Origin: Candidatus Scatocola faecipullorum
Lineage (GTDB): Bacteria > Pseudomonadota > Alphaproteobacteria > RF32 > CAG-239
NCBI GenBank assembly: GCA_018714685.1
Contig: DVNC01000021.1
Coordinates: 76,758-140,757, forward strand
Reading direction: 5' to 3'
Length of the DNA stretch: 64,000 nucleotides
Positions within the stretch are counted from its first letter, which is position 1. Every line of letters starts with the position of its first letter. The notes beneath the pieces were generated by a model. That model made no database searches. It saw only the letters and a program-made list of their open reading frames with translations, and had not been told where the DNA came from. The translations under genes were made by a program, and so were the position numbers. Positions 5,565 to 60,316 of the stretch are shown here, one piece after another.

Positions 5565-5603
5565 GACAATGGCTTTGGTTCAGTTATATCTATGAGGTGT
5601 ATT

Positions 5604-7763
5604 ATGAAAAACATTAGTTCATACTTGTGCGCCCTGTTTCTGGCTGGCTTTTTTGCGGCTGAAGCAGAGGCTTTGACGTATTCTGATTCTCCTTCATGGT
5701 ACACCGGTCTCATAGGCAAAAGTCAAAACCAAATTCTTGAACCAAAGCCCTTGGGCGACATTTCCCGACTGCTCAAGCTGGCGAAAGTTCATTTTATTGT
5801 TGACAGCAACGACAAGCTCGGTTTTGACAATATTGAACAGAGTTTTGACCATGACAATATTAACCGCTGTAAGGCCCTGGGCTTTAACAAGACCGGCGCC
5901 TGCGGCTCAAATCAAAGGGTGTCGCGCTACTGCCCTTATGACAATTCATATTATGACCAGTGCTGCGACATGAACTTTGCCTATTCCAAAGGCGAATGCT
6001 CTTATCCCAACACCATCAGCGGAAACTCCTGCGGCGGGAAATTCAAATGCTATTGCGACAGAAGCCTGTATCCTTATACCGCCACTTCTTGCCCTTCGCC
6101 GAAAATTCATAATGAAGACAAATGTGCCGAGGTAACTTATTCGGCAGGTAAAGCCGCGACCAATATTTATTATTCCGATTGTCTTTGTCCGTCTTCCTGG
6201 ATTACCTGCGACAGTTCAATCCATCAGAAAGGAAACGGGCAGAAATGTGAATATAACGGCGTTACCACTTATGCTTCATGCAGCTGTGAGCCCGGGTACA
6301 GTCTGCTTTGTGAGGAGTTCGGGCCGAAGTCGCCGATGGATTATTGTTTCCTGAAAGGAACGAAATATTACAAAACCTGCAAGACGGAAAAAGACGTTTG
6401 CGACAGTCTGGGATACAAATATTCCAAAGACAGTCCGTGTGATGCGGACTCGGTGATTGCAAGTTACTGTCCGCGGGGAAGCGGCAACACATATTTCTCA
6501 TGCAAAATCGATCCGGACAAATATTGCAAAAACCGTGGTTTTACAACATCTGCCTGCGGTGAATTTCAAACAGTCAGTTCCGAGAAATGCAATGTGCCGG
6601 GGTTTGGGGTACAGGGACAGTATCGCAAATGCAGCCATACCTGCAAGAGCCGTTTAGCGGCGGCTTATCCCAATTACAATTTTGACGGAGTGCGTTCGTC
6701 TAACGGCGGAACGATGGTCTATACCAAAAATGTGGTTGATAATAATCTGAGCGCTTCCAGCAACAGTTATTTCAAATCGGCCTATTCATTCCGAAACAAT
6801 TATTCGGAATGTGCCAATGTCGGCAAGCCGACGGTAACGGTTAATACCTCCGGCAGTACGGTAACTATTCTCTCCGGTATTAATTTGAGCGATGTAAACG
6901 TAAAACTGAATTTGAGCAACGGTTCGAGATATAACGTTAAATTGGACCGCCCGACAACATTTAACAATGCGACGGTTTCAACCAGCCAAACCGCCAAGAT
7001 GACGGTTTACAAAACAACGCTGTATGTTGAAGGGGGAACGAATCTTACGGGAATTAACCAGTTGGATGTTGAAGGCGAACAAAATGACGGAACGTCGGCG
7101 AATTCGTATATTTATGTGAGAGGGGCGGCTTCTTTGGGCAATGTTTATCTGTTCGGGCGTTCCCGCCTTTATGTGAGCGATACCAGCGGTTCGTCTTCGG
7201 CCAGAAATGTTTATATCGGCTGGCGGTATAACAACAGCAACGGCAATCGCGAAGATCACGGCCGGGCGCTGTTTGAACTGGCGGCCAATTCCAAATTTAA
7301 AGTAACCGGAACTGTTGAAATCGAAACCCGATGGGGCGATGCGCCTTTGTCGGGCAGCGGCGGTCCGGCTTTGTATATGCGTGATAAGTCGCAGCTTTAT
7401 GCCGATTATATAAAGAGTTATAATGCAGAGCATTTTATCGGTTATTATGCCATTGTCTGTGCGCGTAACTATTGGCTGCAAAATAAAAATGACCGTGGCT
7501 ATACCAAGATTAAATTCGGGCGGTATGCCAAACTTTTGACCAGAGACGGTTCCGGCTATTTCCGGGCATCATCGGGGGCAACATCCGGTAATTGTTATGC
7601 TTCCGGCTGTAATAATGTTCAGGAGATTATCAGTAAGTTTAAGTCATCGGATGTTGAATTGTCTGGTGCGGGGCATCATGACAAGTGGGCGATGTCTGTA
7701 CAATGGAGCCGTCCGGATACGACGGGCGCTTATAATACCTATTGCGGCAAGTGGTATTACTGA
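5604..7763 (+). CDS. Large secreted cysteine-rich repeat protein with beta-helix-like C-terminal half (no assignable family)
   Basis: GAGGTG precedes the ATG at 5604. Signal peptide MKNISSYLCALFLAGFFAAEAEA. About 29 Cys fall between residues ~90-350 in recurring Y-x-x-C-x-C modules. The Asn/Ser/Thr/Gly-rich C-terminal half looks like an adhesin passenger. Confidence 0.8.
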   Translation: MKNISSYLCALFLAGFFAAEAEALTYSDSPSWYTGLIGKSQNQILEPKPLGDISRLLKLAKVHFIVDSNDKLGFDNIEQSFDHDNINRCKALGFNKTGACGSNQRVSRYCPYDNSYYDQCCDMNFAYSKGECSYPNTISGNSCGGKFKCYCDRSLYPYTATSCPSPKIHNEDKCAEVTYSAGKAATNIYYSDCLCPSSWITCDSSIHQKGNGQKCEYNGVTTYASCSCEPGYSLLCEEFGPKSPMDYCFLKGTKYYKTCKTEKDVCDSLGYKYSKDSPCDADSVIASYCPRGSGNTYFSCKIDPDKYCKNRGFTTSACGEFQTVSSEKCNVPGFGVQGQYRKCSHTCKSRLAAAYPNYNFDGVRSSNGGTMVYTKNVVDNNLSASSNSYFKSAYSFRNNYSECANVGKPTVTVNTSGSTVTILSGINLSDVNVKLNLSNGSRYNVKLDRPTTFNNATVSTSQTAKMTVYKTTLYVEGGTNLTGINQLDVEGEQNDGTSANSYIYVRGAASLGNVYLFGRSRLYVSDTSGSSSARNVYIGWRYNNSNGNREDHGRALFELAANSKFKVTGTVEIETRWGDAPLSGSGGPALYMRDKSQLYADYIKSYNAEHFIGYYAIVCARNYWLQNKNDRGYTKIKFGRYAKLLTRDGSGYFRASSGATSGNCYASGCNNVQEIISKFKSSDVELSGAGHHDKWAMSVQWSRPDTTGAYNTYCGKWYY

Positions 7764-25911: not shown

Positions 25912-26064
25912 TTGTTTGTTTTTTTAGGTTCATAAAAATAGCAATTTCATTCAAAATAGCACCAATTGCGTGTTTTGTCAAAATGTTTGTCGAACAGGGC
26001 TTGCCAAAAACATAAGTTTGTATATAATCGGGACGATAGTTTTTATTATAAATGTTTGATAATT

Positions 26065-27069
26065 ATGGATGTATTGAAAGATTTTGAACTGCGTCAGGTC
26101 GGAAGCAGACTGGTTTTGAGACAGATATGCCCGCCTGATTTTGAGATGAGAACGATTATTGCTGCCGATAAGATTGTGGAGCAAAAGGAAGATTTTTTCG
26201 TGCTCGGCTACAATGAAAAATTTTTCTGTTTATGCCGCTATGATAAGCAAAACAGATGCCTTTGTTCAAAAATAGGCTGTGACGATTATGTCCGGCTCGG
26301 TAAGAAAATTCTGTTTTTGCAGAATATGATGTGGCAGCTGTGGGATGAAGATTTTCAGCTCCATTTTCTGGGCGAATCCGTCGATCAGAAAAAAACGGTA
26401 TTTGTCCGTAAACTTTTCGAAGGCAAAACATGGAACGGGCTTTATTTGCTCAGCTATTTTGAGGGAAACCGGCTCTGTCAAGTCAGGTGCAGCGATTATC
26501 AGAAGACTGAAGGGAAAAGCATTCCCTGTCTGCAAGCTGATATTGCCAAGCTTAAAATAGAAGGTGTTTGGTGTTTTCTCAATATCTTTTCGCGAGGAAA
26601 ATGGTGCCATTGTCCGGGGATGAAAGCTCCGGAATACGGCGTTGAGCGAAAGGTCGTTCTGAGTGAGAAGCCGATGGCTTCTTGGGCGGACTATCATCAT
26701 TTTGTGGAGACATTTCAAAGCAGCAAGTCCGGTTTTGGCTGGATTGCGGATTTTGAAGAAAAATTTGCTAATGCTCTGTGGGAGGGCAAGGATCCTTTCT
26801 TTGATGTGGTCTTACTGCCGTTATTCGGCAGTTGCGGTGAAAGTTTCGGCGTTAAGGTTATTGCCCGGACGCGCAGAATTTTTGAAGGAGAAACACAAGG
26901 TATTTATCAGGTGCTGGCTAAGGACGTGTTTTATAAGCAGGATGCCGATGAGGTTGAAATGGGGCAGTTTGATGGGAAAGACTGTCTTTATGTCCGCTAT
27001 GGCAACAAAGTGCATAAAGTTGTTTGTCAACCGACGGTGATAGGGGCTAAATTGCAGTTAATCGAATGA
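26065..27069 (+). CDS. Hypothetical protein (Cys/Trp/Phe-rich orphan)
   Basis: The long ORF has no recognisable motif, TM segment or signal peptide. The start is uncertain (MDVLKDFEL at 26065, or further upstream at 25966). A strong terminator follows. Confidence 0.5.
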   Translation: MDVLKDFELRQVGSRLVLRQICPPDFEMRTIIAADKIVEQKEDFFVLGYNEKFFCLCRYDKQNRCLCSKIGCDDYVRLGKKILFLQNMMWQLWDEDFQLHFLGESVDQKKTVFVRKLFEGKTWNGLYLLSYFEGNRLCQVRCSDYQKTEGKSIPCLQADIAKLKIEGVWCFLNIFSRGKWCHCPGMKAPEYGVERKVVLSEKPMASWADYHHFVETFQSSKSGFGWIADFEEKFANALWEGKDPFFDVVLLPLFGSCGESFGVKVIARTRRIFEGETQGIYQVLAKDVFYKQDADEVEMGQFDGKDCLYVRYGNKVHKVVCQPTVIGAKLQLIE

Positions 27070-40917: not shown

Positions 40918-40947
40918 AAGGCTCCGTTTTCGGAGCCTTTGTTTTTT
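40918..40947. terminator. Bidirectional rho-independent terminator
   Basis: aaggctccg-tttt-cggagcctt with A-rich and T-rich flanks, between convergent genes. Confidence 0.8.
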
Positions 40948-41575
40948 AATATTCCTGAATATAGTTACTGTCTTGAACGTACATGTTCAGATATTGATGA
41001 ATGTTGCGTTCCATGCGAAGGTTGAATTCATCAAACAGTTTGGTCACCATGCCGTTCCAATATTTTTCCTTTTCGGCAATATCGGTGTCGGCGGGAATAA
41101 TCAGTTCGCGCCAGGCCTGGATTTCGGTTTCGGCGTTGGATAGTTTCTGCGGGTCGCTGATGCGGATGACAACATTCAGCGTTGCACGGTATTTCATGCG
41201 GTCTCTTTCAAAAACCTTATCGGTGGTTTCCAGCTCTTCGGTTACGCTGGCATCTTTGATGATGAACTGGGCAACTTTGTCGGAAGAGAAGTCAACCGCT
41301 TCCAGCCTGTCGCGAGCCCAGGTCTTAGCAGTCTTTTCGATTGAAATGGGGAACAGGTGTTCAACGTTCGGCCGGCGGAAAGACGGCGTAAATTCGGAGA
41401 TAACGTCAACTTTGCTGACTTTGAGCTTAATCGGTTTCTGATCTTCAAAACGCAGTTCGGTGTAGCGGGCCGGCTCGTCGCCTTCATAGCTGCCGAAAAT
41501 CGCGGAGCAGCCGCCGGTCAGGCCGATTAACAGGACTGTAAATAAAATTTTTCGGATTGAGAACATAGCTTTCAT
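40946..41575 (-). CDS. Putative lipoprotein
   Basis: Lipobox LIGLTGGCS. 209 aa. I recognise no family. Confidence 0.6.
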   Translation of the reverse strand: MKAMFSIRKILFTVLLIGLTGGCSAIFGSYEGDEPARYTELRFEDQKPIKLKVSKVDVISEFTPSFRRPNVEHLFPISIEKTAKTWARDRLEAVDFSSDKVAQFIIKDASVTEELETTDKVFERDRMKYRATLNVVIRISDPQKLSNAETEIQAWRELIIPADTDIAEKEKYWNGMVTKLFDEFNLRMERNIHQYLNMYVQDSNYIQEY

Positions 41576-46358: not shown

Positions 46359-48140
46359 ATGGCGGATATGATTAAAAAAGTTCTAAGTGTTTCATTTTTG
46401 GTAATTTTGGCTTCGTGCCGTTCTGCTCCCGTAGCGCAAACCGGCGAAGCGGTCATTGAGCAGGAAACGGCCGTTATCAATCCCGAGCCGGTCAAGGGGC
46501 GGGTGGACGTTTACGAATCAATGGCGCGCAGCGTCAAGTACAATACCGGCGCCACCCTGCGCGAGCTGCGGAAGAAGGTGGTCTATGACAAAAACACCAA
46601 TCCGCGCAGCATTGTCAACAATATCCTTAAAATGAAGAACCTTAATCAGAATCCGCTGTATGACAGTTTGCGCGCGCTTGACTTTGCGATTATTTATGCT
46701 GCGGTCAATTTGAGCGACGACGAGCATTTTACCAGCGCCTATTTGAATGCCAAGGCTTCGCAGACTGCGGCTCTGGCTGCGATTAAGGCGCACAAGGACG
46801 CTTTGTTTGCACAGCGAAAGATTAAGGAAATCGAGCGCATGGTTAAGCGGGAGCAGCGCGAGGTCGATACGCTGAAAGCCAAGCAAGACCGCCTGGGTGT
46901 GCTGAACAGCGATGACGAGGCCTATAAAAAAGGGCTGGAGGTTGTTATCTATAAATTGTCGGAAATTAAGAAAAAGCTGGAGGAAGAAGTTGTCCTTTAC
47001 CGCCAGGTTACAAGGATTGACAGTGATAAGCTGACGCTGGAAGGACGCCGCTTTTATGAAATGGACGATTTGGACGCCGGGCTTAAGGCCGGTGATTTTC
47101 AGGCTTCGGCATTTGCAAACCGACAGGAATTCAAATTGGCGGACGAGCTGAACAGGCAATACAGTTATGAGCAGGTACGCACCATGCTGCGGCATGAGTA
47201 TCCGCAGGTGGAACGTCTGGAAATCAACGGTTTTGACATTGAGGATCCGGTTTATTTGAAAGAATTGCAGCAACGGGCCGATTTTCAGTCCAATTATCTG
47301 GCAGACAAGGTCAGACAGTATATGGAAGCCGGCAATGGCGGTGCCAGACGGGCACTGCGGCAGGAGGCCTTTGAAGAGATGGCGACGGCGATCATGACGC
47401 AGAATGAAGTGGCCTATAATGTGGTTATGCGGGCAGATTTGGATGATGAGGCGGTCAACAAAAGAATTGCCGAGCTGAAAAAAACGATAGCGGAAGGCGA
47501 AAAACGCTATCGTCCGGGCGTTAATCAGAAAATAGACCTGCTGGAACAGAAAACGGCTCTGATTAATTTAGAGCGGCAGGCCAGCCAGATTTTGGCCGAA
47601 AAGGCAATGGCAATCCGCGCCCTGTATTTTTATGCCGGATTTAATCCGTTTACACCCAAGCTGACGGAAGCGCCGGTCAAGGATATCAGCGGCAATTTGA
47701 AGGTCGGTTTTAACAAAGACGTGGTCGAAATGCTGGCGAAAAAAGTTCCGCAGCCGGAGACTCCGCTGAAAACGGAGAAAAACGACTGGGCCAAGCAGGA
47801 CAACTGGCTGGAAAAACTGCTGGAAGGAAAAGACAAACCGCAGAGCGAATCGGTCAATATACGGCGTTATGTCGGTAATTTCGAGCTTTATGAGGGGGCG
47901 GTCTATAACAAGCGCAAGATTATGCAGCTGGGCTCTTACCGGCAAAAGGAAAATGCGGATATGGACTGGAAGATGCTGAAAGAGCTTTATCCCGAACTGC
48001 GGGCATACAGTCCGGTGGTGGAAAAGGCACAAGTCAAGGGCGCGCCGATGTATCGCCTGATTATCAGACAGGAAAACGGAGGTCTGATGGATTTGTGCAA
48101 TAAGCTGCGGGCAGATAAAACGGACTGTCTGCTGCGTTAA
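46359..48140 (+). CDS. Coiled-coil lipoprotein with a C-terminal SPOR (peptidoglycan-binding) domain
   Basis: Lipobox LVILASCRS, a long helical/charged middle, and the C-terminus IMQLGSYRQKENADMDWKMLKE...APMYRLIIRQENGG...LCNKLRADKTDC, which fits the SPOR pattern. Confidence 0.7.
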   Translation: MADMIKKVLSVSFLVILASCRSAPVAQTGEAVIEQETAVINPEPVKGRVDVYESMARSVKYNTGATLRELRKKVVYDKNTNPRSIVNNILKMKNLNQNPLYDSLRALDFAIIYAAVNLSDDEHFTSAYLNAKASQTAALAAIKAHKDALFAQRKIKEIERMVKREQREVDTLKAKQDRLGVLNSDDEAYKKGLEVVIYKLSEIKKKLEEEVVLYRQVTRIDSDKLTLEGRRFYEMDDLDAGLKAGDFQASAFANRQEFKLADELNRQYSYEQVRTMLRHEYPQVERLEINGFDIEDPVYLKELQQRADFQSNYLADKVRQYMEAGNGGARRALRQEAFEEMATAIMTQNEVAYNVVMRADLDDEAVNKRIAELKKTIAEGEKRYRPGVNQKIDLLEQKTALINLERQASQILAEKAMAIRALYFYAGFNPFTPKLTEAPVKDISGNLKVGFNKDVVEMLAKKVPQPETPLKTEKNDWAKQDNWLEKLLEGKDKPQSESVNIRRYVGNFELYEGAVYNKRKIMQLGSYRQKENADMDWKMLKELYPELRAYSPVVEKAQVKGAPMYRLIIRQENGGLMDLCNKLRADKTDCLLR

Positions 48141-48147
48141 AAAATAT

Positions 48148-48176
48148 TTGTCAAAAGGCGGCAGATAAGTTAAAAT
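48148..48176 (+). promoter_or_regulatory. Candidate promoter of the pentapeptide/T4CP gene pair
   Basis: TTGTCA-N17-TAAAAT, 39 nt upstream of the ATG at 48215. Confidence 0.4.
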
Positions 48177-48214: not shown

Positions 48215-49474
48215 ATGGCTGAGGACGAAAAGAATAATTTTGACGGAAGTCCGTCTCACAGAGAAAAAACGGCAGAAAAGAAGCGTTCCGATTATGCCGT
48301 CCGCAGCAAAATGCCGGAACGGGACGAGAATGAAGGCGCTGATACAGGGTTTTCCTGGAGTGCGGTGGCTCATCGGGACAGTGCGGCGAATGCCGCGGCG
48401 CTGGGACCGGATAATTTTATGTCTAACCGGATAGAATTCGGCGGCAAGAATCTTGAAAACGGCAAATTTGCCAATGAAAATTTTGAAAATGCCAATTTTT
48501 CGGTAGCAAACCTGAAAGGCGTCGATTTTTCCGGCGCAAACCTGAAAGGCGTCGATTTTTCCGGTGCCGATTTGAGCGATGCTAATCTTTCCGGTGCCGA
48601 TTTGAGCGGTGCCGTGCTTTCCAATGCGGTTCTGAAGCACACGAATTTCAGCGGGGCGGTTCTGAACGGAGTGGTTCTGACCGATGCCGATCTGGATAAT
48701 GCTATTTTGCTGGATATTACGATTGATGCCATTGCATTGGAAGATTTGCAGGAACTGGTCGAATATCTGGCTAAATATGCGCCGCATAAGCTTAATCTGG
48801 CCAAAATGAATCTGACGATGTTCAATTTGGCCAAAATCGATCTGAAGAATCTTAATTTGCGTGGGGTTGATTTTACCGGCTGCGATTTTACCGGCGTTAA
48901 TATCATGGAGCTTGATTTAAGCGAGTGTATTATTACGCCGCAGCAGATAGCCCAGGCTTTGGGGCGGGTGCCGAATGCCGAGGAACTGCGGCGGATTATG
49001 GCGCCGAAGGTTAAGCCGAAAGGGCCGAAGTCGCAGGGTATTGACCTGACCGATTTGTTTTTTGACAACGGCAAAGAAGCCGGTGTTTGGGAAACTGCGA
49101 AAGACAAAGGTATTTCCACCGCGAAGATTGTGGACATGATCAAGGCAGGGCACAAGGTTTATCGTCGGGTGGTCAAGCGTCCGGAAGGGAACAGGTTTGA
49201 AGCGGCGGCCAAAGAAAGCGCCGAACGCAAAGAAGCTCAGGTATCCAACTCCAATGAAGAACTCAAGAAAGTTTTGGAAGAAAACAAAAGGGCGCTGATT
49301 GAGAAACATAAGCGGGAGGAACTGGAAGCCCGCCGGAACAAAAAAATGGAGCTGGAACAGGCGCTGGCCCGGGAAAACGAACAGGAAAAAACGCCCGAAA
49401 AAACCGAACAGCCAAAAATCAGGCCGTTGACGGCGGAGCGGATTGCGTCGTTCCGCGACCGTTCAAGAGATTAG
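48215..49474 (+). CDS. Pentapeptide-repeat protein with a Lys/Glu-rich C-terminal tail
   Basis: Two blocks of A(D/N)LxG-type pentapeptides: NFSVANLKGVDFSGANLKGVDFSGADLSDANLSGADLSGAVLSNAVL... and LNLRGVDFTGCDFTGVNIMELDLSEC. Confidence 0.85.
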   Translation: MAEDEKNNFDGSPSHREKTAEKKRSDYAVRSKMPERDENEGADTGFSWSAVAHRDSAANAAALGPDNFMSNRIEFGGKNLENGKFANENFENANFSVANLKGVDFSGANLKGVDFSGADLSDANLSGADLSGAVLSNAVLKHTNFSGAVLNGVVLTDADLDNAILLDITIDAIALEDLQELVEYLAKYAPHKLNLAKMNLTMFNLAKIDLKNLNLRGVDFTGCDFTGVNIMELDLSECIITPQQIAQALGRVPNAEELRRIMAPKVKPKGPKSQGIDLTDLFFDNGKEAGVWETAKDKGISTAKIVDMIKAGHKVYRRVVKRPEGNRFEAAAKESAERKEAQVSNSNEELKKVLEENKRALIEKHKREELEARRNKKMELEQALARENEQEKTPEKTEQPKIRPLTAERIASFRDRSRD

Positions 49475-49480
49475 CCGGCA

Positions 49481-51850
49481 ATGAGAGAAAAACTTTATCT
49501 GGAATCCGATAGTTCTTTTTTCAGACGTTTTGTGCTGCTGCCGATTATCGTTTTGCTGATGGTGGTCGGTTTTGTCCTGTCGGCGGTGGTTTTTCTGAGC
49601 CTTTCCCATGTGATGTTTTATGGTTTCAATGAACAGTCGCTGGCAGATTTGGGGCATTTCTGGCTGAGTTGTCTGACCCGTCCGCAAAGGCTGTGGGAGG
49701 CTTATGCCGAGTGGTTTTACGTTTTCCGGCTGGCGGCGGCTTATCACAAGCTTGTGCCGGCCAGCTTTATGCCTTTGCTGGGGCCGCTGCTGTTTATCGG
49801 CGCAACGGTGTGGGCTTATGTCAAGAGTCCGAGTTCGTTTAAGCTGTGGTATCGACTGAAAAATCATTATGCCAAATTTGAAGATGTTCAGAAAATGGGC
49901 ATTTTGAACGGAACTCTGTTTGCCTTGGGGCGTTTTCAGAATCAGGTGCTGCGGTTGTGTCGTCCGCTGTCGGTTTTTGTCTGGGGCGGTGAGGGGTTAG
50001 GCAAAAGCAGCTGCGTTTCCCTTCCGTCGGTTCTCGAATCTGATGATACCTGTCTGGCGGTGGCCGACAGCACGGGAATTCTGGCAAAATATTCAAGCGG
50101 TTACCGGTCGCGGTTGGGTAAGGTTTTTTATTTTAACTGGGGTTTGACCGATGTGCCGGAAAAGGGCGAATTCTGGCCGCGTTGGAATCCGGTGTCGCCT
50201 AAGGATCTGCCGGTTCGCGGCGAGGGGCGTCTGGCTTATATCAAAATGTTGGTTTCCTGCCTTTTCCCTTCCGAAAAGCATAATTTTTGGGAAAAAATCA
50301 GTCAGACTGCTTTGGAAGGATTGCTGCTGTTTTATGTTTCCAAAATCGAACAGGCCATGGCCAATGACTATTTTCTCAGCGGTTTGCTTGAAAAAGGCCG
50401 GATAGCCAAAGAAGACAGAGAACTTTTGCAGAGCTATTACCGGGCAATGAATCCGGAATTGGCGGCGCCGGCGCTGAAAGCTTTGGAGAGCGGGAAACTG
50501 ACGCTGGACAATTATCTGCCGGTGGGCAGTTGGGAAAATGTTTCCGAATCCTGGCGGGGAAAGGAGTTTTGTCTGCCGATGTTTGCCGACTGCCTGATGC
50601 AGCGTTATTTTGCAATTACACAGGAAGACGAAGAAAAAGCCGCGGTCGGCGGATTTAAGGTTATGCTGGGCGAGTTTATCAAAGAAGCGCAGGTTTTCGG
50701 TTATGACCGCCGCGCCATTCAGGTTATGCAGCAGTTGTACTATATGACCCGCAAACAGCGGCGGATTATCTTTACCATGCTGATGGCTCCGCTGACGGTT
50801 TTCCGCAAGAGCACCATCCGGTCGCGCACCAGTTTGAGCGATTTTTCCCTGAACCAGCTGCGCGGCATTTGTGAAGACGGCAGTTGGCGGGTTACCACGC
50901 TCTACACCGTGGCGGATGCGGTGAAATCTTCCGGGTTTATGAGCCGCTTTCTGATTGATATGCTTATTGCGCATAATCTGCGCCCGCGTTCGGAGGAAGG
51001 GCCTTTTGCGCTGGCTTTTGTTCTGGATGATTTCGAACGTTTGCCGAAACTTTCAAAGCTGGCGGCAGGACTGACACAAGGGCCCGAACTCAGAATGTCT
51101 TTCCTGATGCTGACGGACGGGCTGCACCTGATTCAGAACAAATACGGCATGGAAGAGCTGGAAGATATTATCGGCAACAGTTCGGTCAAGCTGATGATGG
51201 CCGAAGACAAGCGTCGGATGAGCGAGCATTTTAACAAACTGGCGGTTTACGGAACCCGTTCGGTTCAGATTCCGGCGGTGGATGCGGGAGCCTTTTACAA
51301 GGTTAAGAAAGGGTTGGCCGATGCCAATTATTATCACCGAATTGCCAGAGATTTGATGAATCATCCGAAGACGGTATCCTTTGACAAATCGCATTATCTG
51401 CTTTTGGTGGAAGGTTTTTATCATCTGCCGGTAAATATTTCTTCCAATAATTTTCTTCGCGACGGCAAGCTGAAAAGCAAGGCTGCCTGCGGTGCCAGTT
51501 ATATTCTTGATGAAACGCTGGCGGCGCAGCGCAATGTGCAGGATGTGGATGCGCCGGATTTGATTGCGGTTTTGCAGGAGGGCGGCATCAATATTGAAAA
51601 AGAGGAAGACGTCGATATTTATCTGGAAGACAAGTATGACGAGGTGGTCGAAACGCTGGAGGAAGATTCCGACGTGCAGACGGTGTGGGCGGAGGAAATT
51701 TCAAACCGGTGGAATTCGGCGCCCTCGGCGGCAGAAAATCCGCAGGATCTGAGGGTGAAGAATGATGACTGGTGGCTGGACGAGGAGGCTTTTAAAACGG
51801 CGGACAGCGATAATGCGAATCCTTTTGAAAGCTTGAACGAAAAGAATTAA
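49481..51850 (+). CDS. VirD4/TraG-family type IV coupling protein-like ATPase (divergent, orphan)
   Basis: Two N-terminal TM helices, Walker A VWGGEGLGKSSCVSLPSVLE, the RWNPV block, Walker B FVLDDFERLPKL, then LMLTDGLHLIQNKYG, and an acidic C-terminal tail. Starts 6 nt after the previous stop. Confidence 0.75.
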   Translation: MREKLYLESDSSFFRRFVLLPIIVLLMVVGFVLSAVVFLSLSHVMFYGFNEQSLADLGHFWLSCLTRPQRLWEAYAEWFYVFRLAAAYHKLVPASFMPLLGPLLFIGATVWAYVKSPSSFKLWYRLKNHYAKFEDVQKMGILNGTLFALGRFQNQVLRLCRPLSVFVWGGEGLGKSSCVSLPSVLESDDTCLAVADSTGILAKYSSGYRSRLGKVFYFNWGLTDVPEKGEFWPRWNPVSPKDLPVRGEGRLAYIKMLVSCLFPSEKHNFWEKISQTALEGLLLFYVSKIEQAMANDYFLSGLLEKGRIAKEDRELLQSYYRAMNPELAAPALKALESGKLTLDNYLPVGSWENVSESWRGKEFCLPMFADCLMQRYFAITQEDEEKAAVGGFKVMLGEFIKEAQVFGYDRRAIQVMQQLYYMTRKQRRIIFTMLMAPLTVFRKSTIRSRTSLSDFSLNQLRGICEDGSWRVTTLYTVADAVKSSGFMSRFLIDMLIAHNLRPRSEEGPFALAFVLDDFERLPKLSKLAAGLTQGPELRMSFLMLTDGLHLIQNKYGMEELEDIIGNSSVKLMMAEDKRRMSEHFNKLAVYGTRSVQIPAVDAGAFYKVKKGLADANYYHRIARDLMNHPKTVSFDKSHYLLLVEGFYHLPVNISSNNFLRDGKLKSKAACGASYILDETLAAQRNVQDVDAPDLIAVLQEGGINIEKEEDVDIYLEDKYDEVVETLEEDSDVQTVWAEEISNRWNSAPSAAENPQDLRVKNDDWWLDEEAFKTADSDNANPFESLNEKN

Positions 51851-58778: not shown

Positions 58779-59657
58779 ATGCCGCAGCAACCTAACGATA
58801 TTCTGCATTATTACCGTCTGGCAAGCCAGCAGGCCGCTTTGGCACAGACTCCGGAAGAAGAGGCTGCGGCCTATCGTCAGGTGGTCGATTTTTGCGAGGA
58901 CAGCCGGGTTTGCCGTCTGGATGACAGCATTAAACGCAATTCGGTCATGTTTTGGTCTTACAACAACATCGGCGATGCGTTGTTGAAAAAAGGGCGCAGC
59001 CTGTTGGGTTTTAAGGCTGCGTCTAAAAATTATGCCGAAGTCTTGCACAGTTATGATCAAGCGCTGCATTCGGCTCGTGATGCGGCGGAGAAGATTTCTA
59101 CGCTGAATAAAATGGCGCAGACTTATCGATTGATGGGGGACAAGGAAAACTGGATTAAAACGGAAGAGAAAGTGATTGAAAATCTGGCAGATTCATTTAA
59201 GCGCCCGGCTTATTTGAAACTGGCGGAACAGGCGGATGACTTGTCTCTGGCGGCAGCGTTGACGGAAAAAGCGCTTGACTATGTTTTGGCGGAAATGGTG
59301 TCGCTGCGGCAGAAATTCCGGAACTTGCTGGATATTTGCTCCAGGCTGGAAAAACTGTATCGTCGTTTAAAGGACGGGCGCAACCGGACGCGTCTGCTGG
59401 AACTTAAACGAAAGACCGTCCGACTGTTGATGTCGGCGCTTGAAAATAAAATAATCCGTGAGACGGACAGCAGGCGGAAATATGTCCTTTATGATGAGCT
59501 TATGAGGTTGGGAAATCATTATTTGGAAGATGACAGGTTGTGGAAGGTTCAGATTTTACAGCTGCTGAAAAGCGAATTGGCGGAAGGAGAAGTCTGGCAT
59601 TTGGACGGAACAAAATACAGCCGTAAAATTATTGATAAAATGTTGCGGAAAATATAA
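58779..59657 (+). CDS. Hypothetical all-helical (TPR-like) protein, paralogue 1
   Basis: 292-aa ORF starting 12 nt after the DUF2769-like gene. Shares the block Y..A....D...K.S.L...A.......NW with the next gene. Confidence 0.55.
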   Translation: MPQQPNDILHYYRLASQQAALAQTPEEEAAAYRQVVDFCEDSRVCRLDDSIKRNSVMFWSYNNIGDALLKKGRSLLGFKAASKNYAEVLHSYDQALHSARDAAEKISTLNKMAQTYRLMGDKENWIKTEEKVIENLADSFKRPAYLKLAEQADDLSLAAALTEKALDYVLAEMVSLRQKFRNLLDICSRLEKLYRRLKDGRNRTRLLELKRKTVRLLMSALENKIIRETDSRRKYVLYDELMRLGNHYLEDDRLWKVQILQLLKSELAEGEVWHLDGTKYSRKIIDKMLRKI

Positions 59658-59734
59658 ATTTTTAAGATAAAGCATCTGGACAGCGATAGTGAATGGTTGT
59701 ACCCTTAACAGAAAGGAGAAAGGGAGACAACCCG

Positions 59735-60316
59735 ATGAATGAAACAGCAGAACGAGTGGAAAAAGCCGGTGATATTAATGAAGCTTATCGGCTGGTTTAT
59801 ATTTACGGCAAAGAAAACCCCAAGGATATTGACGGTTTGATTGCTTTGAACAAACTGCTTATCAGCAAAACGGGAGACCGAGCCAATAATGCCAATGACC
59901 GCAACATCATTTATGAGGCCTATCGTTCGATTGCACGCTGCTATAAGAATAAAAATCTGTTGGGGTCAGGTTATCCTTATGATGCCAAAAACTATGAAAT
60001 GGCGGCAGATTATTATTTGAAAGCGTTTGACAAAGCTCCGGACAGCGGAACCAAACTCAGTTCGCTGGATGGTGCGGCTTCGATGTTTTGGAATTTGGAC
60101 CAAATGCAGAATTGGTGTCGGGTACGGCTGCAACAGGCGGAATTGCTTTCGGATAAGGATAAAACCCGGATTTATATGGATATTGCGCGGGAAACGGCAG
60201 ATGGCGAAGCGCAGCGCAGTTATTATCGGCTGGCATTAAAGTATGCTTCGTTTATGGCGGCAGCACCGAATATACGTGACGGAATTGTCGCCGTTCTGAA
60301 AGAACGTATCGGCTGA
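59735..60316 (+). CDS. Hypothetical all-helical (TPR-like) protein, paralogue 2
   Basis: The start is set at MNETAE, with AGGGAGA 7 nt upstream. Helical repeat composition. A terminator follows. Confidence 0.5.
   Translation: MNETAERVEKAGDINEAYRLVYIYGKENPKDIDGLIALNKLLISKTGDRANNANDRNIIYEAYRSIARCYKNKNLLGSGYPYDAKNYEMAADYYLKAFDKAPDSGTKLSSLDGAASMFWNLDQMQNWCRVRLQQAELLSDKDKTRIYMDIARETADGEAQRSYYRLALKYASFMAAAPNIRDGIVAVLKERIG

Follow-up and report, generated by a model that had tools for sequence, protein, structure and literature searches.

Conjugation and effector secretion are regarded as controlled by ATP-driven gatekeepers, the type IV coupling proteins (T4CPs), whose genes normally lie with those of their secretion machine on mobile or pathogenicity elements. 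In this study, we analyzed a T4CP gene in a 64-kb stretch of DNA from Candidatus Scatocola faecipullorum (assembly GCA_018714685.1, contig DVNC01000021.1, positions 76,758 to 140,757 of the forward strand), referred to throughout as the window. A previous sequence-only reading had singled out this gene as encoding a divergent, orphan VirD4/TraG-type T4CP with altered motifs and a long acidic tail. The gene is the last of a three-gene cassette, behind those for a lipoprotein and a pentapeptide-repeat protein. We tentatively propose, with a little less than even confidence, that its product is a hydrolysis-impaired T4CP paralog acting as a receptor or adaptor in the membrane that is dedicated to the pentapeptide protein encoded beside it, in which the T4CP tail would recognize the Arg-rich C-terminus of its partner, with energy and channel supplied from elsewhere.

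The described T4CP that is closest in structure, Cagβ of Helicobacter pylori (8dol), resembles the window T4CP in having a nucleotide-binding domain (NBD), a large all-alpha domain and, packed against the NBD, a C-terminal extension made of helices. Cagβ translocates protein, is regulated by CagZ and is thought to recognize a basic C-terminal signal in CagA (PMC9886983). It differs in having a PTRSGK P-loop with a cis arginine finger, a D-E Walker B motif and an active ATPase, the window T4CP having Gly and Asp at those positions; in addition, it is encoded inside the island for cag, a type IV secretion system (T4SS), whereas the window T4CP lies among housekeeping genes, and the two share ~13% identity. 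TrwB of R388 and VirD4 of Agrobacterium tumefaciens (PF02534/PF10412) share with the window T4CP two transmembrane helices, a RecA-like NBD, an all-alpha domain and a hexameric-ATPase fold, and VirD4-type proteins can bear Asp/Glu-rich C-terminal domains as it does (PMC7434980). However, TrwB residues E357, R375 and Q386 correspond to Asp, a variable position and Asn/Asp, respectively, in the clade of the window T4CP, which has no linkage to a relaxase or T4SS. DotL, the type IVB T4CP of Legionella pneumophila, has a long C-terminal tail that receives effectors and adaptors (PMC7434980), but its partners DotM, DotN and IcmSW are absent beside the window T4CP, and the structural match to it (Foldseek, 6sz9, E = 1.8e-5) is weaker than those to Cagβ or TrwB. 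A fourth counterpart is the alphaproteobacterial RvhD4 of Rickettsia, which binds the C-terminal tails of its substrates RalF and RARP-2 and also the pentapeptide-repeat protein cREM-4 (PMC11077975). RvhD4, however, belongs to the recognized rvh T4SS, and cREM-4 is ~950 residues long and is not reported as the upstream neighbor of the T4CP. The searchable literature on the lineage and its secretion systems, on orphan T4CPs and on pentapeptide–T4CP pairs held no account of the present T4CP family.

Family and Fold of the Window T4CP

The 789-residue open reading frame (ORF) is a genuine gene and not a chance ORF, because 79 homolog clusters and 112 genome loci were found for it and its ratio of nonsynonymous to synonymous substitution rates (dN/dS) is 0.04–0.12. 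The motifs quoted in the sequence-only reading all occur in the order given there, together with the two transmembrane helices: HYAKFEDVQKMG (residues 129–140), WGGEGLGKSS (168–177), AVADSTG (193–199), FNW (218–220), RWNPV (234–238), FWEK (269–272), FVLDDFERLPKL (513–524) and LMLTDGLHLIQNKYG (542–556), followed in the tail by the block beginning EEDVDIYLEDKYDEV (708–731) and by DDWWLDEEAF (762–771). The VirD4/TraG identity was also borne out, with PF02534 (T4SS-DNA_transf) scoring 63 bits against a Pfam cut-off of 20.1 and PF12696 (TraG-D_C) scoring 24.9 bits against 22. The divergence is considerable, as the NCBIfam models for VirD4, IncP TraG and Ti TraG gave 16–54 bits against cut-offs of 250–728, the top scores (54.1 bits vs. 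250 and 43.2 vs. 674) thus falling below the equivalog cut-offs, and when 1.84 billion representatives were searched exhaustively with phmmer, just 369 sequences reached E ≤ 1e-3, 72 of them with E ≤ 1e-30.

A search of the PDB with the single sequence gave nothing useful, and profile and fold searches were required for placement. The family profile against PDB sequences matched H. pylori Cagβ best (E = 1.9e-6), with TrwB at E = 0.13. The AlphaFold2 (AF2) model of the T4CP, built with 38 homologs in the alignment, is confident (pLDDT 83, pTM 0.77) and retains the complete T4CP architecture of two membrane segments, RecA-like NBD, all-alpha domain and helical C-terminal domain. Its best Foldseek match in the PDB was Cagβ 8dol (E = 3.7e-14, TMt 0.61), followed by most TrwB chains at ~1e-7 to 1e-5, with one HerA chain among them at 6e-6, and then by DotL, further HerA-type ATPases and VirB4 of R388; the alignments to Cagβ and TrwB span >540 columns. 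By its fold, the protein is therefore a remote member of the VirD4-type coupling proteins and of no other P-loop family. There was no NCBIfam or Pfam match of DotL type, and the immediate neighbors of the gene (for the pentapeptide protein and rarA) are not those of a DotL/IcmO locus.

The presence of HerA-type structures among the Foldseek matches raised the alternative of an anti-phage defense system based on an FtsK/HerA-like ATPase. Foldseek lists SIR2-HerA, DndH and TdpAB at E values of 1e-5 to 1e-4, and the cassette does evolve fast. However, the HerA-type structures (E 6e-6 to 1e-4 overall) rank under all Cagβ and most TrwB chains, with T4CP structures scoring far above them, and the Pfam family FtsK_SpoIIIE did not match the protein. 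In addition, PADLOC-DB had no match for any of the three cassette proteins, there is no nuclease or SIR2-type effector, and the locus does not vary like an island but has a fixed position. We consider a defense role very improbable.

Loss of Hydrolysis Residues in the Window Clade

The catalytic motifs were examined by column counts in 55 orthologs (window numbering; TrwB residue numbers are the chain index + 70 in the profile alignment). The residues that bind nucleotide and Mg are retained: the P-loop lysine K175 is kept in 54 of the 55 and the Walker B aspartate D516 in all. The sequence-only reading had described Walker A as altered, which is accurate only in part, as GGEGLGKS is a regular GxxxxGK[ST] P-loop that lacks the Arg of the VirD4-type PTRSGK. 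That Arg position (172, three before the P-loop Lys and equivalent to the cis arginine finger R241 of Cagβ) is Gly in the window and G43 S5 E4 R2 in the clade. Position 517, after the Walker B Asp, where the canonical relatives have the catalytic Glu, is D47 N6 G2 and never Glu, the window reading FVLDD. Position 535, the equivalent of TrwB R375, varies between Lys, Pro, Glu and Ala (Pro in the window), so that both known arginine-finger positions, trans and cis, are replaced across the clade, and of the canonical DPKxE (positions 196–200) Asp alone is kept, the conserved Glu being lost. The QSxxQL block had been reported to be replaced by TDGLHL; the Gln is indeed lost, but the canonical QS/QD Gln aligns with D546 and not T545, position 546 (TrwB Q386) being Asn or Asp in the clade and Asp in the window.

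These altered motifs are conserved throughout the clade, and the protein falls apart from ordinary VirD4. Beyond the clade, its closest relatives retain all the canonical elements (APPGTGKT, (N)DPK(P/G)E, LDEF, GRGQK and AQD), and a few intermediates have the DD of Walker B and retain the Arg and Gln. From the retention of K175, T/S176 and D516 together with the loss of the Glu, the arginine fingers, the Gln and the DPKxE Glu, we infer that this T4CP paralog probably binds nucleotide but hydrolyzes ATP poorly or not at all.

An opposing explanation is that the protein is a catalytically active VirD4 of the ordinary kind, working for a conventional T4SS with virB genes elsewhere in the chromosome, and that the lineage tolerates the DD of Walker B and its further substitutions as quirks. 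This would be in keeping with its full architecture, its intact P-loop Lys and Walker B Asp, the strong purifying selection on it, and the near-invariance of G48, Y75, W78 and P98 in the N-terminal membrane region and predicted periplasmic loop, which suggests that a membrane or periplasmic partner has been retained. Acidic C-terminal domains are also normal in VirD4-type T4CPs (PMC7434980). However, four separate catalytic elements have been replaced together clade-wide while the nearest relatives keep all of them, and the equivalent Glu and Arg mutations are not tolerated in Cagβ, where K244A, E551A/Q and R241A/K each abolish ATPase activity; TrwB R375 is the trans arginine finger (PMC9886983). 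Together with the evidence from T4SS-linked relatives presented below, this makes an ordinary VirD4 unlikely in our estimation.

A Pentapeptide-Repeat Partner and an Acidic T4CP Tail

The pentapeptide gene ends 6 nt ahead of the T4CP start, and such a gene is directly upstream of the T4CP gene in every one of the 54 orthologous loci that could be extracted, at gaps of −44 to +124 nt. Hydropathy analysis of the 419-residue pentapeptide protein revealed no signal peptide, transmembrane or hydrophobic segment. The window protein ends ...RIASFRDRSRD, and the C-termini of the 54 orthologs, behind a variable linker, are always Arg-rich (...R[DG]R[SG]R[DE], ...RGRGxxER or ...SRGGNER), with Arg at position −6 in 38 of them and an Arg fraction in the last 10 residues of 0.29 vs. 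0.05 protein-wide. A simple C-terminal cluster of positive charge is a functional VirB/VirD4 translocation signal (PMC3297438), and the pentapeptide protein has the C-terminal Arg/Lys cluster of VirB/VirD4 substrates, as judged from its sequence a candidate signal.

Pentapeptide–T4CP pairs were also identified in three other clades and chromosomal contexts, with canonical motifs in the T4CP in two (L083 and L089/P0078) and intermediate motifs in the third (L090/P0217), and their pentapeptide partners all end in a Lys/Arg-rich tail. It thus appears that the two genes were paired before the catalytic site degenerated. A possible link of the pentapeptide protein to DotG/IcmE was rejected, as the NCBIfam score was 28.6 bits against a cut-off of 750 and reflects similarity at the level of the repeats; classical pentapeptide repeats are not what DotG contains (bioRxiv 10.1101/2023.03.22.533729). 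Enlarged pentapeptide proteins of 572–613 residues are encoded at three loci (L024, L025 and L062).

The ~110-residue Asp/Glu/Trp-rich tail that the sequence-only reading had likened to adaptor- or effector-binding tails is real and is conserved in the 38-member alignment. Residues 680–789 comprise 31 Asp + Glu, 8 Lys + Arg and 4 Trp, with a net charge of −23, and include the conserved blocks RNxQD..P.L, EE[DE][IV]D.YL.D.Y[DE]E, DIS.RW, DDWW[LM].E[DE][AS]F and, at the terminus, NPF. In the AF2 model, the tail is helical to about residue 745 at pLDDT ~70–90 and its last ~45 residues are disordered. The acidic extension is specific to the clade and absent from canonical relatives. An acidic tail as such is not new, because Asp/Glu-rich C-terminal domains are known to receive substrates or adaptors in VirD4, TraD and DotL (PMC7434980); by analogy with those, the tail may bind an adaptor or effector. 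Within its disordered end (51764–51847, residues 762–789), DDWW[LM].E[DE][AS]F and NPF resemble short linear binding motifs.

Chromosomal Setting, Inheritance and Selection

The window is ordinary chromosome that carries lptF/G, tyrA, nrdAB, nusA-infB, truB, pnp, ychF, thyA, hsp33, truA, rarA, an rluD-like gene, asmA and miaA. There are no T4SS, relaxase or integrase genes in its 64 kb, scanning it for tRNAs and Rfam families gave no hits, and the GC content is even over the region. A scan of species-representative genomes found 112 relatives, 80 of which were kept; essentially all are metagenome-assembled genomes (MAGs) of uncultured gut Alphaproteobacteria, Ca. Scatocola being filed under Rhodospirillales. 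Matches to the cassette or its immediate flanks were obtained by tblastn at 69 loci, which comprise 66 genomes and three metagenome contigs. All eight genes of the region, namely truA (−), a GFO/IDH/MocA oxidoreductase gene (−), the lipoprotein (+), pentapeptide (+) and T4CP (+) genes, rarA, the rluD-like gene and asmA, were found at 56 of the 69 loci, the other 13 ending at a contig edge or missing one match.

Identities to the window at the 69 loci were 82–96% for RarA and 69–94% for the oxidoreductase, compared to 29–70% for the T4CP, 30–70% for the lipoprotein and 44–76% for the pentapeptide protein. On close pairs, dN/dS was in the T4CP range given above, 0.05–0.15 for the pentapeptide protein and 0.03–0.17 for the lipoprotein, vs. 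0.008–0.035 for rarA. The fixed synteny, these identity ranges and the dN/dS values relative to rarA demonstrate that the three-gene cassette is vertically inherited, functional and fast-evolving, and that it is not a remnant of a mobile element. The synonymous divergence (dS) of the cassette genes is usually above that of the adjacent rarA in the same genome pairs, often ~2-fold (locus pairs L005–L012, L017 and L024–L062), possibly because codon usage constrains rarA or because the cassette recombines.

The altered catalytic motifs of the T4CP and the lack of T4SS genes next to it could point to an integrated conjugative or mobilizable element of which a remnant is now decaying. This possibility is effectively refuted by the synteny and selection data, and we regard it as the most improbable of those considered: the protein is full length in 69 loci at the same chromosomal site, at the identities to the window given above, the dN/dS values are those of a gene under constraint, and the usual marks of such an element (an integrase, a relaxase, a tRNA, a compositional anomaly or a patchy distribution) are all lacking.

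Two observations on individual loci can be added. An extra 1.3–3 kb lies between the T4CP gene and rarA in L010–L012, L023–L025 and L062. The L043 MAG is titled 'Lactobacillaceae bacterium', a label that is probably a binning or labeling error because it holds the alphaproteobacterial cassette and a RarA of 82% identity.

Canonical Relatives and the Search for a Channel

The T4CPs recovered were divided into group 1, with degenerate motifs, and group 2, the canonical-motif paralogs L069–L083, P0076–P0079 and P0217. The window T4CP is 28% identical to a canonical paralog over 693 residues (E = 4e-100), and the two are collinear in the membrane region and the all-alpha domain as well. Group-2 proteins are collinear over ~690 residues, share the unusual motifs PRWNP, ANDYFL and DNYLP.G.W with the window T4CP, are likewise chromosomal and unlinked to VirB genes, and in some cases are also preceded by a pentapeptide protein with a basic C-terminus. 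They differ in having kept the canonical motifs, in lacking the 100-residue acidic DDWW/NPF tail and in being paired, for the most part, with a conserved membrane protein. A degenerate and a canonical T4CP (L062 and L081) both occur in the MAG BRZ_CI__bin121.

No VirB/Trb channel gene, relaxase or VirB11 was found in the 64-kb window or within ~±10 kb at the 69 related loci, over which the description of the T4CP as an orphan holds. VirB, Trb and Dot genes were likewise absent within ~10 kb of the canonical relatives of the same lineage, whose neighbors are housekeeping genes or lineage-specific unknowns. The distant canonical relatives L093 and L094 served as a positive control, being found in trbI-virB11-T4CP and virB11-T4CP arrangements. 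This bears on the ordinary-VirD4 explanation raised above, as these T4SS relatives adjoin virB10 and virB11 and none of the 69 loci does.

Large ORFs beside group-2 T4CPs that were suspected of encoding VirB4 proved to be pheS and pheT. The group-2 cassettes were also considered as paralogs of the whole window cassette, and this was rejected, as the lipoprotein hidden Markov model found nothing in them and the pentapeptide protein matched in L083 only. In six loci (L070, L071, L075, L076, L081 and L082), the canonical T4CP closes a conserved block of about six genes (at ~5–12 kb in each locus) located among housekeeping genes. The partners in this block have no Pfam or NCBIfam match and include a membrane protein of 440–517 residues (N-terminus MKPLL...RVIMLRNWHF) whose gene ends 8–18 nt before the T4CP; the block could be unrecognized T4CP-associated machinery. 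Among the representative-search hits, five other canonical relatives (P0238, P0292, P0295, P0324 and P0329) have large, intein-like insertions that interrupt precisely the loop of Walker A (APPG[CT]...HNTGKT).

The Upstream SPOR Lipoprotein

The start of the 593-residue lipoprotein is most likely at 46359, as judged from its lipobox and the beginning of its homologs. Its AF2 model (pLDDT 81.6) consists almost wholly of helices, two of its hairpins being very long, and has essentially no strands ahead of the SPOR domain; that domain is at the C-terminus, where the SPOR fold is confirmed by a Foldseek match to the RlpA SPOR domain 6i05 (TMt 0.65). Foldseek also gave weak matches to TolC, CusC and OprM (E 1.6e-4 to 1e-2, TM 0.3–0.45). 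Identity as a TolC-type channel or outer-membrane factor was rejected owing to the missing barrel strands, the weak TM values and the lack of a sequence match: Pfam OEP did not match the lipoprotein, NodT gave E = 0.24 and a PDB sequence search was empty. The gene is usually, not always, a member of the cassette, and because it is missing beside the pentapeptide–T4CP pair in L043 and L065, the lipoprotein is accessory at most.

The lipoprotein is of relevance to another explanation, under which the cassette would be a module independent of any T4SS. The domesticated T4CP would be a nucleotide-binding pseudo-ATPase, a nucleotide-gated inner-membrane receptor that sequesters, holds, gates, positions or exports the pentapeptide protein, with its DNA-mimic fold, by a non-VirB route, possibly with the SPOR lipoprotein and its TolC-like helices, in a function related to the envelope, division or DNA. 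Such a module would suit the catalytic degeneration, which befits a non-motor role, and the core-genome position kept over 66 species-level genomes. In addition, pairs and lone T4CPs of the wider clade are also found among housekeeping genes with no VirB nearby, and the lipoprotein, with its SPOR domain, has a model that matches only outer-membrane factors of the TolC family. However, the TolC likeness is as weak as described, two loci lack the lipoprotein gene beside the pair, and the absence of channel genes is limited to the window and ~±10 kb at the loci. T4CPs are not known to work without a T4SS, except the FtsK-like TraB, which is of a different family, and this also counts against such a module. 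We judge this explanation to be improbable, to about the same degree as an ordinary VirD4.

A Proposed Receptor for the Pentapeptide Protein

We return to our proposal of a dedicated receptor or adaptor. The T4CP would bind ATP and act as a membrane-anchored receptor or adaptor and not as a motor. Its client would most likely be the upstream pentapeptide-repeat protein, predicted to be cytoplasmic, with its conserved Arg-rich tail, and the likely docking site would be the clade-specific acidic and aromatic tail of the T4CP, such that a tail-to-tail interaction is predicted. The client may then be delivered to a translocation route encoded elsewhere, an unlinked channel possibly operating with a canonical T4CP paralog. 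The SPOR lipoprotein would be a frequent accessory that can be absent.

Several points weigh against this proposal. No translocation route was identified, because the window and the ~10 kb at the 69 loci contain no channel genes. The co-occurrence with a canonical paralog was seen in one MAG only and could be a binning artifact. The tight coupling of the two genes would equally fit a regulator or a subunit of a complex, as CagZ is for Cagβ. Lastly, the exchange of Glu for Asp is conservative and may have left some ATPase activity.

Features of the Locus and Other ORFs in the Window

The features of the cassette are compiled in Table 1. The promoter-like site ahead of the pentapeptide gene is weak, and the scan for promoters and terminators found no more sites in the region than expected from shuffled sequence. 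By hydropathy, the hydrophobic segments of the T4CP span residues 10–49 and 91–114, with an intervening loop of ~45 residues.

Table 1. Coordinates of the T4CP cassette and its parts in the window
Feature	Position	Strand	Basis
Gene for 789-residue VirD4/TraG-family T4CP paralog	49481..51850	+	ATG start; PF02534; AF2 model; Foldseek
N-terminal membrane region of T4CP	49508..49822	+	Hydropathy; AF2 helices 13–47 and 93–115; conservation
Walker A / P-loop WGGEGLGKSS	49982..50011	+	K175 kept in 54/55 orthologs
AVADSTGI, counterpart of canonical (N)DPK(P/G)E	50057..50080	+	Columns 195–200, group 1 vs. canonical relatives
All-alpha domain between Walker A and Walker B, ~residues 248–450	50222..50830	+	AF2 all helical; Foldseek
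Walker B FVLDDFERLPKL	51017..51052	+	D516 invariant; catalytic Glu position is D517
Region aligned to TrwB R375 (position 535) and Q386 (position 546)	51077..51127	+	Profile alignment to TrwB 1e9r
C-terminal acidic extension, residues 680–789	51518..51847	+	Alignment of 38 members; AF2 pLDDT; net charge −23
Gene for 419-residue pentapeptide-repeat protein	48215..49474	+	PF00805, 113.8 bits vs. 20.2
Arg-rich extreme C-terminus PKIRPLTAERIASFRDRSRD, candidate T4CP recognition signal	49412..49471	+	C-terminus-anchored logo
Promoter-like site TTGTCA-17-TAAAAT, 10/12, ahead of pentapeptide gene	48148..48176	+	Weak
Gene for 593-residue lipoprotein	46359..48140	+	Lipobox LASC, C20 invariant; homologs begin at M7 of listed ORF
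SPOR (peptidoglycan-binding) domain of lipoprotein	47919..48113	+	PF05036, 23 bits vs. 21

Elsewhere in the window, a 723-residue ORF (5592–7763, +) has a signal peptide, is extremely rich in Cys throughout its N-terminal half and belongs to no Pfam family. Four further ORFs of 207–367 residues without a Pfam match at E ≤ 1e-5 (25966–27069, +; 40946–41575, −; 58779–59657, +; 59693–60316, +) stand among the housekeeping genes.

Conclusions

In a whole lineage of gut commensals, the T4CP described here belongs to the core genes of the chromosome; its residues for hydrolysis have been lost in a conserved manner while purifying selection persists, and it has a one-to-one tie to just one candidate client, whose basic C-terminal signal resembles textbook examples. 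If recognition is indeed tail to tail, the two proteins would constitute an unusually simple receptor–substrate pair for studies of how T4CPs read signals, and, if our proposal is correct, the T4CP would represent an example of a pseudo-ATPase inside the T4CP family. Should these genomes contain no VirB channel, the list of roles known for the T4CP scaffold would have to be extended. Potentially, if the cassette is instead a module independent of a T4SS, the wider clade of orphan T4CPs embedded among housekeeping genes in these Alphaproteobacteria would represent a previously unrecognized use of that scaffold.

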